DNA of 34,370 nt from positions 1 through 34,370 of IMG/VR virus record IMGVR_UViG_3300032287_000440; one strand, given 5' to 3'. Of the stretch, positions 19,368-34,370 are shown one piece after another; the first letter of the stretch is position 1, and each line of letters starts with the position of its first letter. Under the pieces are notes generated by a model that searched no databases, was not told where the DNA came from, and saw only the letters and a program-made list of their open reading frames with translations. The stretch comes from a virus. Taxonomy: Duplodnaviria > Caudoviricetes. Position numbers and translations under genes: made by a program.

Positions 19368-19507
19368 TCGTCATCCTCCTCATCATCTTCACATCTTTCG
19401 CAACCGGGATGGTCTGGATCACGGCAATCATGGGCAGACATCAGCCGATAGTGGCGTTTCTTCTCCCACCAAACCAATGCTTGCAATTCTTCTCTTTCGA
19501 CATCCAT
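19364..19507 (-). CDS. 47-aa Cys/His protein (not in ORF track)
   Basis: MDVEREELQ...CRDPDHPGCERCEDDEEDDE; SD TAAGGAG. Confidence 0.65.
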   Translation of the reverse strand: MDVEREELQALVWWEKKRHYRLMSAHDCRDPDHPGCERCEDDEEDDE

Positions 19508-19516
19508 AAATGCTCC

Positions 19517-19699
19517 TTAAATACGTTCGTTTATGACGTTTGACCAAATGGTCTGTGGTTTTTGATGGTCGCGGTAAAACTTAATCAAATAATCAACGAC
19601 TTGGTGATAAGACATTGATATGCCCAATTGCTGTTGCAACGAGGCTTTGATTGCGTCAATGTTTCCATCAATCGGCAACGTGATTCTTTTAGTCACCAC
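19517..19699 (-). CDS. Small putative DNA-binding protein (RHH-like)
   Basis: GTG start; KRITL strand followed by two helices. Confidence 0.5.
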   Translation of the reverse strand: MVTKRITLPIDGNIDAIKASLQQQLGISMSYHQVVDYLIKFYRDHQKPQTIWSNVINERI

Positions 19700-19788
19700 G
19701 GTGCTTCCTCTGCATCCGAGGGGAATTTCTGCCGCTTTGGTTCTTTGTAAGGCGGCAAGGGAAAGGGCGGGAAAGGCCAAGTATTCAT
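19693..19788 (-). CDS. 31-aa Pro-rich peptide (not in ORF track)
   Basis: MNTWPFPPFPLPPYKEPKRQKFPSDAEEAPW; ATGA-coupled to rusA; SD GGAGG. Confidence 0.55.
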   Translation of the reverse strand: MNTWPFPPFPLPPYKEPKRQKFPSDAEEAPW

Positions 19789-20213
19789 TCCAGTTCCTCC
19801 TTAACCATGATGTCCACGCCCGGCTCACTTGCGTAGACCTTTGTGCAATGCAATGAAACGATCTGCGAATCGTCCTTAAAAACCACCCCATTCATGCCAT
19901 CCAACATGGATTTGGCAAGGTTGTCGATGTCTGGCTTCTTAATTGGCTTCTCCAAGCCCGTTAAACAGTCCTCTGTGCGCTTTTTAGAGTGCGACTTAGG
20001 GATGGGTAGCCTCATGTACAAATAAACGCCCACAGGGGTTTCTAGCGGCTCGTTCGATCCCATAGCGTTTTGGGAGGTCAGCCGCACATGATCCTCATAC
20101 GTCCGGGTTCCCTTGTCGGTGTAGGATTGGACTATTCCGTTGAATTGACGGAATCGAGGGCGCTTTTTAGGGACTGGTGTGCCCTCAACGTGAAAGTGAA
20201 CCATAAAAGTCAT
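19785..20213 (-). CDS. rusA: Holliday junction resolvase RusA
   Basis: G.PVPK.RPR and KPDIDNLAKS.LDG.NG....DDSQIV catalytic motif. Confidence 0.92.
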   Translation of the reverse strand: MTFMVHFHVEGTPVPKKRPRFRQFNGIVQSYTDKGTRTYEDHVRLTSQNAMGSNEPLETPVGVYLYMRLPIPKSHSKKRTEDCLTGLEKPIKKPDIDNLAKSMLDGMNGVVFKDDSQIVSLHCTKVYASEPGVDIMVKEELE

Positions 20214-20449
20214 TTGTTTAGCCTGTTCATTCGTTGTCTGAGATCAAAGGCGGCATCGTCACCGCGCAACCTTCTGATGTGGTTAATGGTTCTGTCCCAC
20301 CATATCCGGGCATCGTTCGGGCCAACCTCTTTGGCTTTCTCCCGGTATCTCTTTATCCATTCCCGAGCCTCTGCCTCGCGTATGAATTCCAAGGTCGCCG
20401 GTGACGAGTAGGGCGAGGTTGACTTTGTATTGCGGGGTCGGGATACCAT
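20210..20449 (-). CDS. Hypothetical protein; true start uncertain
   Basis: EAREW..RY...WW...RG helical pattern; ATGA-coupled to rusA. Confidence 0.55.
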   Translation of the reverse strand: MVSRPRNTKSTSPYSSPATLEFIREAEAREWIKRYREKAKEVGPNDARIWWDRTINHIRRLRGDDAAFDLRQRMNRLNK

Positions 20450-20492
20450 TTTTTGCTCCGTCCAAAATCAAGTGTGCTTCTGCGTTGGTCAT
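20283..20492 (-). CDS. Hypothetical protein
   Basis: MT.AEA..ILD..K.G...N.AL..TGDL; SD AGGAG; ATGA-coupled to MTase. Confidence 0.55.
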   Translation of the reverse strand: MTNAEAHLILDGAKNGIPTPQYKVNLALLVTGDLGIHTRGRGSGMDKEIPGESQRGWPERCPDMVGQNH

Positions 20493-21304
20493 TTAAATGC
20501 TCCTGCTAACAATCGGAAGGCTTCTGCGGCACAGAGGGGGACTTGTCCGTTGCCAATGGATTTAAGTCTGTCCACCCTAGCGGCCACCCCATCAGCCACT
20601 CGACCCACGTTGGGTTCAGCTTGCCACCATTTCCCGCCCCCATTAGCCTGGCTTCCTCGATGGTTGTGTTCTTGTTCAGCAGTTCCCATGAACCTGTCCC
20701 GCCACACATCCCAGCCGTTCTCGGTGTGGGCCAATTCACTTGCGCTGTCAGCGTTGGCGTGTTCCTGTTGTGTTCGCTTGGCGCGTTCGTTTCTTTTGCC
20801 ATATGTGCTGTTGGTGTAGGCCACGATCCACATTCTGTCCCTCTGGTGATTGGCTCCAACGTCTGCTGCTCCCATAACAGTCCATCGACAGTCATACCCC
20901 AGCGCGGCAAGGTCTGCAATGACTCTGGTTCCTCCTCTAGTAGTGAGCATTGGGGAGTTTTCCACGAACACGAATCGGGGTCGAACTTCGCCAACCAACC
21001 GCGCCATATGTTTCCACATTCCTGATCTTTCTCCATCAAGTCCATCACCTTTTCCTGCCGCACTAATGTCCTGACATGGAAATCCACCACTGATGACATC
21101 GACAACTCCTCGCCATGGATGTCCGTCAAAGGTTTGAACGTCATCCCAAATCGGGAAAGGCGGGAGAAGGTTGTCATTTTGTCGGGCGCACAGTACGCTT
21201 GCGGGATAGGGTTCCCACTCAACGGCGCAGACGGTTCGCCATCCAAGGAGTTTTTCCCCAAGTATTCCTCCACCAGCGCCCGCGAATAAAGCCAACTCAT
21301 TCAT
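20489..21304 (-). CDS. C5 cytosine DNA methyltransferase, catalytic (alpha) chain lacking motif IX
   Basis: Motif I LFAGAGG, IV GGFPCQDIS, VI VENS, VIII HQRDR, X LKSIGNGQVP. Confidence 0.92.
   Translation of the reverse strand: MNELALFAGAGGGILGEKLLGWRTVCAVEWEPYPASVLCARQNDNLLPPFPIWDDVQTFDGHPWRGVVDVISGGFPCQDISAAGKGDGLDGERSGMWKHMARLVGEVRPRFVFVENSPMLTTRGGTRVIADLAALGYDCRWTVMGAADVGANHQRDRMWIVAYTNSTYGKRNERAKRTQQEHANADSASELAHTENGWDVWRDRFMGTAEQEHNHRGSQANGGGKWWQAEPNVGRVADGVAARVDRLKSIGNGQVPLCAAEAFRLLAGAFK
20506..21300 (-). CDS. Overprinted MTase partner (beta) chain carrying motif IX and putative TRD
   Basis: 264-codon alternative frame with its own ATG and SD; two WPTP repeats; LNPTWVEWLMGWPLGWT. Confidence 0.75.
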   Translation of the reverse strand: MSWLYSRALVEEYLGKNSLDGEPSAPLSGNPIPQAYCAPDKMTTFSRLSRFGMTFKPLTDIHGEELSMSSVVDFHVRTLVRQEKVMDLMEKDQECGNIWRGWLAKFDPDSCSWKTPQCSLLEEEPESLQTLPRWGMTVDGLLWEQQTLEPITRGTECGSWPTPTAHMAKETNAPSEHNRNTPTLTAQVNWPTPRTAGMCGGTGSWELLNKNTTIEEARLMGAGNGGKLNPTWVEWLMGWPLGWTDLNPLATDKSPSVPQKPSDC

Positions 21305-22062
21305 GCTCCTTTCCTCAATGCCGCCATCTTTGCCAAAACTTCTAGGGACGGAGGAGCGGCTCTTTTCCTGTCCTCATCCAGTTTGACCAGCGCCGGGTCG
21401 CGTTCTTTGGTTCCAGGTACTGTGGTTCTGGCAATGTCAGCAGGTGCAACCTTGAGCGCATTCTGTCGGCGTATCCAATTGCGCCATGTGGCCTCCCAAT
21501 CGGTCTTAACGCCTTTCTGACCGGGTTGGGCAATCCAGTAGTCTCGGAATTGCTCCCAAACATCTAAGGCAGAAAGTTCGGGGCGGGTTTTGATGCAGAA
21601 CGAACACCATTCTTCTGGCAAAAGAAAATTTGGGTCAAGGCGCGAACCGCGCCGCGCTTTAACCTTGTGTTCTGTGTCTTGTGTAGTGTGTAATGTGTCT
21701 TGTGTAGCATTGCTTTCGGATTGCGTTGGCAATGCGTTCGCATCCTTGGCTTTGCTCCATCGTGCTTGAGCACTTTTGCTGGCTTTGTTTGACTTCTCTC
21801 CAGCCTTAGCAATCTCAGCATTTGCCCGGTGATGAATCCACCCTTTTTCTGTGCGCTCGAAATACTCTTGCAATACGGACGCAATGCAATCCGTATGCGA
21901 ACGCATACGAATCTGCCTAGCGGTTTCGCTTATTTCGTTAGGAATGGGGGATTCGTGAAGATAGTACCAATCCAGCAAACGCCGATAGGTCAAATCTTCC
22001 ATTTCGGAAAGATGTTCCGTGTGACTTTTGTAGTCACCAATATTGAATTGGTAGTAGTGCAT
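21301..22062 (-). CDS. Replication initiator, YdaU/DUF1376 family
   Basis: MHYYQFNIGDY..T.HLS..E...YRRLLD.YY..E.P; C-terminal FRDYW..K.DW.ATWRNW. Confidence 0.88.
   Translation of the reverse strand: MHYYQFNIGDYKSHTEHLSEMEDLTYRRLLDWYYLHESPIPNEISETARQIRMRSHTDCIASVLQEYFERTEKGWIHHRANAEIAKAGEKSNKASKSAQARWSKAKDANALPTQSESNATQDTLHTTQDTEHKVKARRGSRLDPNFLLPEEWCSFCIKTRPELSALDVWEQFRDYWIAQPGQKGVKTDWEATWRNWIRRQNALKVAPADIARTTVPGTKERDPALVKLDEDRKRAAPPSLEVLAKMAALRKGA
21665..21745. repeat. Candidate replication origin iterons inside initiator gene
   Basis: TGTGTCTTGTGTAG at 21673 and 21694 (21-bp period) plus adjacent short GCATTG/GCAATG repeats. Confidence 0.5.
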
Positions 22063-22154
22063 TGCACTTCCTCGCTTACCTCCAGAAAGAAACGCGCGGC
22101 AGGTGGGAGGTGCACTTTTCGATCAGGGGATCAATCCTGATCTAGCCGGGTTTC
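22063..22154 (-). ncRNA. Structured 5' leader of replication gene
   Basis: Nested stems GAAAC/GUUUC, CGGC.AG/CUGCCG, GAUCAGG/CCUGAUC; ACCUCC complementary to downstream GGAGGU. Confidence 0.6.
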
Positions 22155-22159
22155 AAAAA

Positions 22160-22187
22160 ACTATACCATCAAATTCCGCAACCGCAA
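22160..22187 (-). promoter_or_regulatory. Putative sigma70 promoter for replication operon
   Basis: TTGCGG-16-TATAGT with extended TGn, just upstream of the leader. Confidence 0.5.
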
Positions 22188-22297
22188 ATCATTTTGCCGT
22201 TAGCGCCCTGGATGCAACGATAAGGCTGGAAGGTCGGGCAAGCTGCCATAGCAACGCCAGAGGCAAAAAGCACGAGGGAAACAATCAGTTTTTTCAT
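22169..22297 (-). CDS. 42-aa secreted Cys-rich micropeptide (not in ORF track)
   Basis: MKKLIVSLVLFASGVAMA signal peptide plus ACPTFQPYRCIQGANGKMICGCGI; SD AAGGA. Confidence 0.75.
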   Translation of the reverse strand: MKKLIVSLVLFASGVAMAACPTFQPYRCIQGANGKMICGCGI

Positions 22298-22308
22298 GGT
22301 GGTTCCTT

Positions 22309-22473
22309 TCATTGAATAACATCAAACCATTTGGGCCGCAAAAGCATTAGCTGGTAAATCCGTCCTTGTGGGATAGATTTCCATTGCCAAACCGCCCCTC
22401 TGGTGACCCCCAGGAGGCGTGCTAGGTTGGCTTGTGAGCCAGCCAGTTCAATTGCTTTATCTTTTGTCAACAT
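22309..22473 (-). CDS. cro: Cro-like HTH regulator (probably leaderless)
   Basis: AIELAGSQANLARLLGVTRGAVWQW..IP..R.YQL; ATG 6 nt after -10 TATACT with no SD. Confidence 0.85.
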   Translation of the reverse strand: MLTKDKAIELAGSQANLARLLGVTRGAVWQWKSIPQGRIYQLMLLRPKWFDVIQ

Positions 22474-22479
22474 TCTGCG

Positions 22480-22562
22480 AGTATAGAATCCTAGACGAAA
22501 ATACAACACATAACCCTGTATTGCGCTTGGGTATTGAGTTGTGGTCTAGTTTGCTATACACT
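22480..22562. promoter_or_regulatory. Divergent promoters with two operator-like palindromes
   Basis: Leftward -10 TATACT at 22480-85; rightward TTGAGT-17-TACACT at 22534-62; GTCTAG-N4-CTATAC at 22481-96 (-) and 22544-59 (+). Confidence 0.7.
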
Positions 22563-27544: not shown

Positions 27545-27636
27545 GTTGGGTGTTAAGCCAGCATTCGAGGATGTCAATGTGGGGTGTTTTCTGGCTTTCC
27601 ATCCTGCCTAGTTAACGACCAAATCGAGCCCAACCA
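27545..27636 (+). ncRNA. Structured, possibly tRNA-like/pseudoknotted RNA
   Basis: GUUGGG/CCCAAC closure; three internal hairpins; AAGCCAG/CUGGCUU complement; ends ACCA. Confidence 0.55.
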
Positions 27637-28346
27637 TGCCTACTTTAGCCGACATTTACAGCGCAATAGGAACTGCCAGACGCAAGGCGTCAGACTTTGT
27701 GCAGAACCCTATGACCAGTCTGCAACAGATGGCTGGTAATGCCAATGACCGGGCTAGGGCATTGAATGAGATGACTGCGGCGGCGGCAGAGGAAAAAGAA
27801 CTCTACGGGCCAGCAAACCGGGCGCTTGGGGCTAAGTTAGCAGAGGCTTACAACCCTATGGGGATGACTGTTTACCACGGCAGTCCTCATCTCTTTGAGC
27901 GTTTTGATCTTGGAAAAATGGGTAGCGGAACTGGGCAACAAGTCTATGGAAAAGGCTTGTATATGGCTGAAAATCCTGCGACTGCACAAAAATATCAAAA
28001 AAACGTCAAAGATTTAGAAAATCCGGGCAATTTATACAAAGTTGATCTTCCAGACACTCATGTCCGCAGGATGTTGGACTTTGATGAACCATTGAAAAAT
28101 CAACCTAAGAAAGTTAGAGATTTGGCTAAATCGCTTAATCTAGACTTGAATGATCTTGGTGGCGATTTGCTTGAAAGAATTGGAAAAGGCGAACAAGGCA
28201 AAAAGATTCTTCAAGACGCAGGAATAACAGGCATTAAGTATTACAACGAGATGAGTGGCGGCAAAGATTTGTGGAAGCGAAATTTCGTAGTGTTTGACCC
28301 GAATCACCTGACCATCCTTGAGCGAAACGCTGAAAATATCAAATGA
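27636..28346 (+). CDS. ADP-ribosyltransferase-fold (ART-PolyVal-like) protein
   Basis: VYHGS..FERFD, YGKGLY.AE, GNLYKV, GITGIKY and NFVVFDP motifs. Confidence 0.65.
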   Translation: MPTLADIYSAIGTARRKASDFVQNPMTSLQQMAGNANDRARALNEMTAAAAEEKELYGPANRALGAKLAEAYNPMGMTVYHGSPHLFERFDLGKMGSGTGQQVYGKGLYMAENPATAQKYQKNVKDLENPGNLYKVDLPDTHVRRMLDFDEPLKNQPKKVRDLAKSLNLDLNDLGGDLLERIGKGEQGKKILQDAGITGIKYYNEMSGGKDLWKRNFVVFDPNHLTILERNAENIK

Positions 28347-33120: not shown

Positions 33121-34359
33121 ATGTCAAATACCTTGCTAACTATTAGCAAGATCACCAACGAAGCGTTGATGGTCTTGGAAAACGAGTTGACCTTCACCTC
33201 GGAAGTTGATCGCAACTATGACGATCAGTTCGCCGTAGTTGGAGCCAAAATCGGCAACACGGTTAACGTTCGCCGTCCGGGCCGTTTCATCGGCACGACT
33301 GGCCCCGCCCTGAACGTTGAAGATTTCAACGAAACGAGCGTGCCCGTGACCCTGAGCACCCAGTTCCACGTTGACACCCAGTTCACGACTCAAGACCTGG
33401 CTCTGTCTCTGGATATGTTCTCGGATCGCGTGCTAAAGCCCGCCGTTGCCGCTATCGCCAACAAGATTGACCGCGATGGTCTGTCGATGGCTACCCTGCA
33501 AACCGCCAACATCGTTGGTACTGCTGGCACGCCGCCTACCGGCCTGATTACCTACCTGACCGCAGGTGCGTATCTGGACGCTGAAGGCGCACCCCGCGAT
33601 GGTCGCCGTTCGTGTATCGTTGAACCGTTCACGAGCGCAACCATTGTTGACAGCCTGAAAGGTCTGTTCGTTCCCCAGGAAGCCATTGGCGAGCAGTACC
33701 GTAAAGGTCTGATGGGCCGTGACTCTGCTGGCATGAACTGGAAGATGGATCAGAACGTGGTTTCCCAGACCTTTGGTTCGTTCGCTGGTACGGCTGTGTG
33801 TTCTACCACCGCTGCCACGGGCTTCCTGACCTCTGGTTGGGCATCGTCCTCCACGATCAGCATCACCTCTACCGGCGCAGTTTCCCTGAACGCTGGCGAT
33901 GTGATTACGATTGATGGCGTGTACGCTGTTAACCCCCAGAACCGTCAAGCCTACGGCTCGAACAAGCTGCGTAACTTTGTGGTGAAAGCCGCTGCCTCTG
34001 GCACTGGCGCAACCTTCAACGTGACCGTCAGCCCCGCAGTCATCACCGCTGGTCAATTCCAGAACGTGACGATTCCGAGCACCTCCTCTACGGCTACCGT
34101 TAACTTCTTCAACAAGACGGGTACGGTTTCTCCGCAGAACATCATCATGCACCGCAATGCGTTCACGCTGGCAGTGGCTGATCTGGAACTGCCGGAAGGT
34201 GTGCATTTCGCCGGTCGCGCTTCCGACAAGGAAATCGGCCTGTCGATGCGCGTGGTTCGTCAGTACACGATCAACAACGACTCTATCCCGACCCGTCTGG
34301 ATGTGTTGTACGGTTGGGCTCCTCTCTACCCCGAACTCGCTTGCCGCGTTGCAGCTTAA
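33121..34359 (+). CDS. Major capsid protein (P22 gp5 coat family)
   Basis: ITNEALMVLEN, KIG.TV.VR.P, AGDV.TI.GV and RLDVLYG motifs. Confidence 0.93.
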   Translation: MSNTLLTISKITNEALMVLENELTFTSEVDRNYDDQFAVVGAKIGNTVNVRRPGRFIGTTGPALNVEDFNETSVPVTLSTQFHVDTQFTTQDLALSLDMFSDRVLKPAVAAIANKIDRDGLSMATLQTANIVGTAGTPPTGLITYLTAGAYLDAEGAPRDGRRSCIVEPFTSATIVDSLKGLFVPQEAIGEQYRKGLMGRDSAGMNWKMDQNVVSQTFGSFAGTAVCSTTAATGFLTSGWASSSTISITSTGAVSLNAGDVITIDGVYAVNPQNRQAYGSNKLRNFVVKAAASGTGATFNVTVSPAVITAGQFQNVTIPSTSSTATVNFFNKTGTVSPQNIIMHRNAFTLAVADLELPEGVHFAGRASDKEIGLSMRVVRQYTINNDSIPTRLDVLYGWAPLYPELACRVAA

Positions 34360-34370
34360 TTGAAAGGGAA
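34248..34370. repeat. Terminal direct repeat, copy 2
   Basis: Identical to 1-123. Confidence 0.97.

Follow-up and report, generated by a model that had tools for sequence, protein, structure and literature searches.

Two nearly coextensive reading frames in a tailed-phage genome probably encode the two chains of one C5-cytosine DNA methyltransferase

The tailed-virus record IMGVR_UViG_3300032287_000440 (Duplodnaviria; Caudoviricetes), which we analysed over its whole length of 34,370 nucleotides (nt) and refer to as the window, carries a minus-strand gene that can be read in two frames over almost its whole length. The first frame, alpha (20489..21304), encodes a DNA methyltransferase of 271 amino acids (aa). 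The second frame, beta (20506..21300), lies in the +1 frame, opens at an ATG 4 nt after the alpha ATG (ATGAATG) and encodes 264 aa, and the two share 795 of 816 nt (97.4%). An initial annotation made from the sequence had placed a methyltransferase gene split over two such frames at 20489..21320, with the second frame open for 264 codons and covering about 97% of the gene. Both open reading frames (ORFs) are found there with this extent, and the strand, which had been left unstated, is minus for both. From sequence comparisons, structure models and analogy to a known enzyme, we consider it probable that both frames give proteins and that these join into one enzyme, an orphan two-chain phage C5-methyltransferase of the M.EcoHK31I type.

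Judged by its motifs, the alpha chain is a C5-cytosine DNA methyltransferase (PF00145) with motifs I, IV (PC), VI (ENV/P), VIII (RxR) and X in order. It matches PF00145 over residues 4-218 (E 9e-33; 114.5 bits against a cut-off of 22) and phrog_363 (E 1e-69), and residues 4-166 match residues 15-174 of M.HhaI (E 2e-12). The elements are FAGAGG, GFPCQ with C77, ENSP, HQRDRMW and, as motif X, IGNGQ, and residues F7, G9, P76, C77, E115, N116, R155, R157, G251 and N252 are invariant in an alignment of 71 rows. According to the conservation profile, motifs I-VIII occupy residues 1-161 and a pre-X segment with motif X residues 226-262, with an unconserved filler (residues 162-225; conservation 0.16-0.36) in between, which is the least conserved part of the chain. 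The earlier description of a methyltransferase with motifs I-VIII and X but no motif IX was thus borne out.

The beta chain begins with a conserved N-terminal extension (residues 1-104, 20989..21300), which is overprinted on alpha motifs I-V. It is followed by a core (residues 105-159, 20824..20988) with WKTxQCSL and PxWGMxxxGxxWE that is the +1 reading of alpha motifs VI-VIII, and by two WPTP cassettes (residues 160-189, 20734..20823, and residues 190-226, 20623..20733) that are candidate target-recognition units. Behind the cassettes lies a motif IX equivalent, LNPTWVEWLMGWPLGWT (residues 228-244, 20569..20619), and the same DNA encodes VGRVADGVAARVD in alpha; all these parts are on the minus strand.

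For comparison, we collected 80 viral loci with alpha alone as query (59-81% identity), out of about 1,600 such stretches estimated in the collection. One locus at a contig edge (L016) was dropped with an unreadable alpha, so that frame counts refer to the window plus 79 homologs; in three rows where motif I was not matched, counting began at the start of the ORF, one row breaks off where its contig ends, and 76 rows are complete, 73 of them distinct. The +1 frame is free of stops from motif I to motif X in all 80 rows, and no stops occur upstream of the LNP..E.LMG motif, which answers the homolog comparison that the initial annotation had suggested as a check. The +2 frame is open in none of the rows (median 15 stops), and the three reverse frames are open in 1, 0 and 0 rows. 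With the alpha protein held fixed and its codons redrawn by window usage, the +1 frame received 5.7 stops on average and stayed stop-free in a fraction of 0.00065 of 20,000 draws. Per locus, the chance of an open +1 frame is about 10^-3.3, although the homologous loci are related to each other and cannot be counted as independent trials. In the +1 frames of fourteen other window genes there are 2.0-6.5 stops per 100 codons, and the longest open runs span 36-146 codons. In addition, the beta ATG is found at the same place in 74 of 75 homologs; of 76 rows, 55 have an alpha start codon 4 nt ahead of it, and in the remainder alpha continues from upstream. An antisense ORF of 160 aa (20543-21025) with a weak PHROG match was rejected as a gene in view of the counts for the reverse frames.

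Beta-like proteins are widespread, with 7,824 of 7,996 scored candidates at E<=0.001. A second set of 80 genome loci, found by beta patterns in Acinetobacter, Pseudomonas, Burkholderiales and others (34-65% identity), has an alpha-type methyltransferase in the -1 frame in every case. Both frames are whole in 72 of these loci, two end at a contig edge and six have one frame interrupted. As the set was picked by the beta N-terminus, it is uninformative on the frequency of full overlap.

Besides being open, the second frame leaves its mark on the first. At invariant four-fold degenerate alpha columns, wobble diversity is 0.30 (residues 1-60), 0.44 (61-104), 0.33 (105-161), 0.0 (226-245, three columns) and 0.37 (246-262), compared with 0.64-0.70 in four neighbouring gene families, which are perhaps more diverged than alpha. 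The suppressed synonymous variation that had been proposed as a further check is therefore present. Within alpha 1-60, 6 of the 22 invariant four-fold columns are frozen, and they lie over the beta N-terminal extension. Both frames are under selection, in different places.

An alternative is that beta is the mere shadow of conserved alpha codons and has no function, with alpha either working alone or being degenerate. The alpha motifs do dictate much of the pattern of the beta core and N-terminus, as outside the cassettes amino-acid differences are 0.07-0.25 in alpha and 0.24-0.45 in beta. Database searches with beta also lend themselves to this view: the window protein matches no Pfam family, with single-member weak matches only among the 71 proteins, and a beta profile finds nothing among PDB sequences. 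NCBIfam and the named ESM Atlas clusters give no match either. Beta matches PHROG families only, the best being phrog_1008, 'DNA methyltransferase' (E 3e-26), and the blank searches prove neither novelty nor absence. However, a shadow explains neither a +1 frame without stops in every row nor the frozen wobble sites, beta is conserved where alpha is not, and alpha is without motif IX. Furthermore, two methyltransferases that are complete in frame 0 (L201 and L203) have stop-rich +1 frames. We therefore regard a non-functional beta as extremely improbable.

The conservation of beta in places where alpha drifts is most obvious in the cassettes. We found 127 of them in 72 of 73 distinct loci (one in 24, two in 41 and three in 7 loci), and they fall into 37 families whose order is mixed among loci. 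The first window cassette belongs to the commonest family (31/127) and the second cassette to the second family (19/127). In the eight largest families, differences at the third codon position of beta reach 0.48 against 0.13 and 0.11 at the other two, and the amino-acid difference of alpha (0.53) is three times that of beta (0.17); here the cassette pairs were filtered on DNA identity, and the families were defined on beta similarity, which biases the comparison towards beta. In the stretch of WPTP units, selection acts on the beta frame, with alpha as filler. This filler is nevertheless free of stops (chance about 10^-2 per locus), as alpha has to read through the cassettes to reach motif X. 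What we observe is thus two selected frames, a set of methyltransferase motifs divided between them, and cassettes that vary in number and order.

Lee, Kam and Shaw reportedly described M.EcoHK31I as a C5-methyltransferase of an alpha and a beta chain in 1995, and the initial annotation had drawn the comparison with this enzyme. According to the accessible parts of two publications, M.EcoHK31I from E. coli (YGGCCR) is such an alpha/beta enzyme (PMC2836561, PMC3404938). In the first of these, as far as its text was available, alpha without beta gave no methylation, both chains together gave full protection, and internal beta starts at 17 or 26 also gave activity (PMC2836561). Among 5,426 E. coli genomes, 81 contain a gene that matches a primer from the supplement of that publication. 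One of the matched loci, L170, has a 309-aa methyltransferase beside a convergent NotI-family nuclease, and a 176-aa ORF in the +1 frame that starts at alpha codon 104 with the residues read from the published beta primer. On this basis we took L170 as an M.EcoHK31I allele, at least one residue of which differs from the primers.

The phage beta profile scores 24.7 bits on L170 beta, and the best of 1,000 shuffled sequences reaches 9.9. The beta core aligns with GMAFRGEYW of L170 beta (GM..G..W over alpha motif VII) in the same +1 register, and LNPTWVEWLMGWPLGWT aligns with its canonical motif IX, RRMLPSEYERLQGFPENWT, over the same stretch of alpha; part of this likeness is forced by the homologous alpha codons. 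L170 beta itself matches TIGR00675 at 217-302. In the phage family, E234, M237, G238 and T244 of the beta motif are invariant among the 71 rows. By alignment, then, the motif IX that a C5-methyltransferase requires is provided by beta 228-244 and not by alpha, and the motif IX-like LNP element reported earlier for the second frame holds up. The two systems thus share an alpha chain with motifs I-VIII and X, a beta chain with motif IX in an alternate frame inside alpha, the +1 phase, the register of the GM..G..W core, and that of motif IX, which lies over the pre-X segment. The tests of frame, phase and motifs are all in line with the proposed two-chain enzyme of this type with near-total overprinting.

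They differ in several respects. Phage beta starts at alpha codon 2 and overlaps 97%, whereas L170 beta starts at codon 104 and overlaps 57%, so that beta 1-104 is without a counterpart there. Motif IX reads LNP.W.EWLMGWP in the phage and RR.LP.EYERLQGFP in L170. The variable part of the phage enzyme is the selected WPTP cassettes of beta, whereas the target-recognition domain (TRD) of M.EcoHK31I was reported in alpha, as far as the accessible text goes (PMC2836561, PMC3404938). In contrast to L170 with its nuclease, a Pfam scan of 27 window ORFs found no restriction-enzyme gene. L170 alpha groups with canonical-IX enzymes in a tree, and a single origin of the overlap in the phage family and L170 appears likely from the sequences. 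Near-total overlap marks the present clade and not the whole family, since as read from the sequences beta opens later in Che9d, in Arcticfreeze and in the EcoHK31I-type gene.

When both chains were co-folded, as the initial annotation had recommended, the alpha-beta complex model (71-row alignment for each chain) reached a score of 0.86 with 0.00 for the best control. The mark for this test was attained by 116 solved complexes out of 157 and by 2 mismatched pairs out of 215, although the halves of a split enzyme may pass it by likeness to solved methyltransferases. At least 44% of contacts recur between runs, and the predicted local distance difference test score (pLDDT) of the partner is at least 53. 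The tightest contacts are predicted between beta 230-246 and alpha 246-257 (motif X) and 36-41, and the beta core is predicted to pack on alpha 118-155. In monomeric C5-methyltransferases, motif IX likewise packs on motif X. The model therefore supports binding of alpha and beta. A single-chain relative, P0272, was modelled with a pLDDT of 75.5 and superposes on M.HhaI (Z 23.8, root-mean-square deviation 3.2, 219 aligned residues).

In the complex, beta 1-105 lies outside the confident interface. Together with the later opening of beta in Che9d and Arcticfreeze, and with the EcoHK31I-type beta that starts at alpha codon 104 and tolerates internal starts, this would fit a shorter working beta that begins at an internal methionine (e.g., M86, M89 or M136), the first 100 codons being open only for translation coupling. 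Such a variant is compatible with a two-chain enzyme. Seven frozen wobble sites in alpha 1-104, some of them far from the start (48, 58, 68), point instead to amino-acid constraint on this part of beta, and we consider the short form rather unlikely.

Further insights come from relatives with other architectures. Among 44 long proteins found with beta 155-250, three are single chains in the order I-VIII, WPTP units, LxPxWxEWLMG and X, and 11 of 119 proteins found with one of these three have the catalytic motif, IX and X, most of them with WPTP units in between. In these single chains, the beta motif precedes X. The beta core is retained behind motif VIII in P0140, P0165 and P0159; since it represents motifs VI-VIII read in the +1 frame, these three would have to derive from a two-frame gene. 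P0140 and P0165 are 70% identical over their length and are therefore not one assembly error. The single-chain relatives are known as protein only, and a DNA scan for P0140 returned only five two-frame loci. A DNA pattern for un-overlapped motifs IX and X retrieved 22 loci, none of them a clean single chain. In 15 of these, alpha ends after VIII and beta has IX and X, which is the division of M.AquI (CYCGRG), an enzyme of two polypeptides with part of the variable region and motifs IX and X in the second chain, as given in the accessible part of PMC3404938. M.AquI resembles the phage enzyme in having two chains, the second with part of the variable region and motif IX, but differs in the place of motif X, as the phage IGNGQ is in alpha and beta ends without it. 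In a tree of motifs I-VIII (69 rows, quick mode) the architectures are mixed; the state 'single' needs seven changes, three of which are forced by starred branches, and the direction of change is unfixed.

The natural single chains also give some appeal to the idea that one ribosome shifts frame twice, from alpha to beta after VIII and back before X, and so makes a single chain of just this order. However, such a hybrid needs neither the conserved beta ATG and the conserved, stop-free first 150 codons of beta nor an alpha frame that is open over the cassettes. Moreover, IX and pre-X share the same DNA in the two-frame gene, yet single chains carry them in tandem with a spacer of 30-50 residues. 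A double frameshift is thus very improbable, and two separately started chains remain our preferred explanation.

Several relatives show peculiarities of their own. P0256, P0181, P0191 and P0194 are alpha-type proteins with two tandem copies of the pre-X segment, a possible step to the un-overlapping of IX and X. The beta chains P0123 and P0133 continue in frame into the unrelated domains PF13649 and PF07799, as real fusions or read-through calls. Three phage C5-methyltransferases (L198:1039-2127, L199:991-2073 and L200:928-2070) have a canonical motif IX in frame 0 plus a long +1 ORF over motifs IV-VIII, and look from their sequences like a second kind of two-frame C5-methyltransferase. Their +1 ORF ends in ECSLSDILEE..V.E..FLS, an element that L201 and L203 have in frame 0, and L170 beta has a similar segment at that place. 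In mycobacteriophage Ochi17, gp73/gp74 (L194:832-1591) are annotated as two methylase genes and read as a Che9d-like two-frame gene with the frame change after VI. Finally, gp56/gp57 of Paenibacillus phage Arcticfreeze (MH431932) are given in GenBank as two nested coding sequences (CDS), both named DNA cytosine methyltransferase, the nested one with a WATP unit and LNPDWVECLMGFP; this rests on annotation, and the overlap is 705 of 1,056 nt.

The role of the cassettes is less certain than the two-chain enzyme itself. M.HhaI and M.HaeIII are monomeric, with one frame and one TRD. The Bacillus phage enzymes M.SPR, M.phi3T and M.rho11s are orphan, multispecific C5-methyltransferases; between motifs VIII and IX they have recognition modules of about 30-40 residues each, which are arranged in tandem and can be exchanged. 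The WPTP cassettes are likewise tandem, exchangeable and placed between VIII and IX; in contrast, the Bacillus phage enzymes are single chains in one frame, and we found no sequence link between their modules and the cassettes. In line with the proposal of candidate target-recognition units in the initial annotation, selection in the beta frame and the place between VIII and X in single chains make it likely that beta carries shuffled target-recognition cassettes. One may argue instead that both chains are made and bind, but that beta supplies only motif IX and structure and the WPTP units read no target. This would agree with the TRD assignment to alpha in the accessible text on M.EcoHK31I, with a TLDSRG segment of L170 alpha at the place of the variable region, with cassettes that are not folded in the model and with the missing link to site depletion. 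However, the variable region of phage alpha is its least conserved part and drifts under the wobble positions of beta, so it cannot be a conserved TRD, and the cassettes of single chains sit between VIII and IX, which is the location of the TRD in C5-methyltransferases according to the accessible literature. A purely structural beta therefore seems unlikely to us.

As to possible targets, the genome is without GGWCC (0 vs 45 expected) and CGWCG (0 vs 36), and AGCT, CASTG, GGCC and CGCG reach 0.35-0.54 of their expected numbers in the window; when 69 homolog flanks are pooled, GGWCC likewise stands at 0.27. The missing GGWCC and CGWCG are consistent with restriction pressure and name no target.

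Some observations weigh against a two-chain enzyme with recognition cassettes, in addition to the relatedness of the homologs, the blank database searches, the possible biases of the two selection comparisons and of the complex test, and the TRD reported for M.EcoHK31I alpha. Beta folded alone gives a poor model (pLDDT 50), and in the P0272 model the cassettes stay below a pLDDT of 50, so that their recognition role rests on position, modularity and selection and not on fold. Among four cassette families and 48 avoided words in the 69 flanks, no association survives correction (best p 0.005, uncorrected).

The two starts lie in a compact region, GAGGAAAGGAGCATGAATG (21298..21316, minus strand), with two elements resembling Shine-Dalgarno (SD) sites, both ATGs and the stop codon of the upstream gene. 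GAGG (21316-21313) stands 8 nt before the alpha ATG and AGGAG (21310-21306) 5 nt before the beta ATG, so that the suggestion of an own SD for each frame is correct for the window, in elements and spacings. As a family trait it is not upheld: among 49 distinct start regions (48 homologs and the window), at least two SD-like registers are present in 15, one in 25 and none in 9. In the commonest register, the distance is 4 nt to alpha and 8 nt to beta, which allows a single site to serve the two starts. The double SD of the window also codes for the end of the replication protein, a 253-aa product of replication-initiator type (DUF1376; Pfam, PHROG; 21301..22062, minus strand). The TGA of this gene (21303-21301) shares nucleotides with the first ATG and directly adjoins the second, which gives the TGA-ATG/ATGA junction described initially. 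Co-translation with the initiator, which had been proposed as well, fails as a family trait, since an initiator homolog abuts the gene in only 8 of 75 loci. An upstream ORF of at least 40 aa ends in an overlapping TGA in 19 of 48 homologs, and the upstream genes are varied.

For the two-chain enzyme, we propose the following mechanism. Translation would start at either ATG, by ribosomes that have just completed the upstream gene or that bind at the shared SD region, and one mRNA would thereby give both chains. By packing of beta 225-251 on motif X of alpha and of beta 106-169 on alpha 118-155, the chains would rebuild a two-domain enzyme of the HhaI type. Alpha C77 would attack the flipped cytosine, as the catalytic cysteine does in all C5-methyltransferases. 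Each cassette may read a target, so that cassette swaps would change or add specificities, and alpha would need only to stay stop-free there. Methylation could then shield new phage DNA from host restriction enzymes. In a more tentative and wider view, which we find conceivable but hold with less than even confidence, the WPTP cassettes may be a distinct class of interchangeable recognition units that make a multispecific, reprogrammable methylase. Frame-shadow segments (the beta core over VI-VIII and alpha pre-X over IX) may have turned into working parts that are retained when relatives un-overlap by duplication into AquI-like and single-chain forms. If this is true, overprinting, recruitment and un-overlapping would have occurred within one enzyme, across thousands of phages.

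Four features are new relative to the literature examined: an overlap that begins at codon 2 and reaches 97%, the location of the cassettes in the second frame, the family size, and the coexistence of AquI-like and single-chain forms. Our search found no paper that describes the phage family; a prior description of phage members is possible, as mycobacteriophage papers of the Hatfull group and the M.SpyI paper may mention overlapping methylase subunits. The family is not described in the accessible parts of PMC3706429, PMC3029335, PMC6070908, PMC4260502, PMC8788219 and PMC11855218, nor in those of bioRxiv 2020.06.30.179317, 2022.06.14.493971 and 2025.01.02.630785, and the nested pair of Arcticfreeze is not discussed in the accessible part of PMC6070908. 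The locus is a same-strand overlap of about 800 nt in which two frames appear to encode halves of one enzyme. Annotations of beta-like proteins and genes mostly give one CDS or 'hypothetical'. An annotated CDS that is cloned, modelled or recoded alone would likely be a dead enzyme, and the specificity determinants would stay hidden. Should the cassettes be TRDs, the family would offer a natural collection of exchangeable C5 specificities, from which the anti-restriction methylation of phages could be predicted directly. As its relatives are of the two-frame, AquI-like and single-chain kinds, this one enzyme allows the evolution of overprinted sequence to be tested.

Because its slot is empty or refilled in relatives, the methyltransferase gene is also an accessory insert (20497..21310, minus strand), which separates the replication gene from the gene behind it and has ATGA overlaps at both ends. 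Among 16 loci with the downstream 79-aa gene, one has this methyltransferase in the slot, in seven the replication gene is joined to the next gene and one has a 203-aa gene; in near-identical phages from sequencing runs, the slot is empty or replaced. The slot between the replication gene and a 69-aa gene (window 20492-21300; L207:1536-2147) can thus hold nothing, the methyltransferase, the 203-aa gene or several small genes. AGGAGCAT occurs at both ends of the insert (21310-21303 and 20504-20497) and in four copies in the window, with about one expected, and both end copies are SD-like. Just downstream on the minus strand, the 69-aa gene (20492-20283) and the 79-aa, DUF7696-like gene (20449-20210) share 167 nt in different frames. 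Of the 16 related loci, 11 have matches to both, and similar overlapping pairs are found in L215, L216 and L218.

The window record is complete, with direct terminal repeats (CheckV), and its genes include a P22-like terminase, portal and coat (Pfam scan). Around the methyltransferase runs a series of minus-strand genes (cro, replication gene, methyltransferase, rusA), so that its neighbours are replication, RusA and small genes. Reads of the best-matching sequencing run, from which the window itself may derive, show zero differences over 19500-21146 and 21278-22500. An RNA run (X20) yielded short pieces only, mostly from relatives, and was uninformative on expression, and a promoter and terminator scan was at chance level. 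Elsewhere in the window, a plus-strand gene before the small terminase (27636-28346, 236 aa) has an ART-PolyVal ADP-ribosyltransferase domain (E 1e-7), and an antisense frame over the coat gene (33433-34368, minus strand) is open for 311 codons and still open at the window end.

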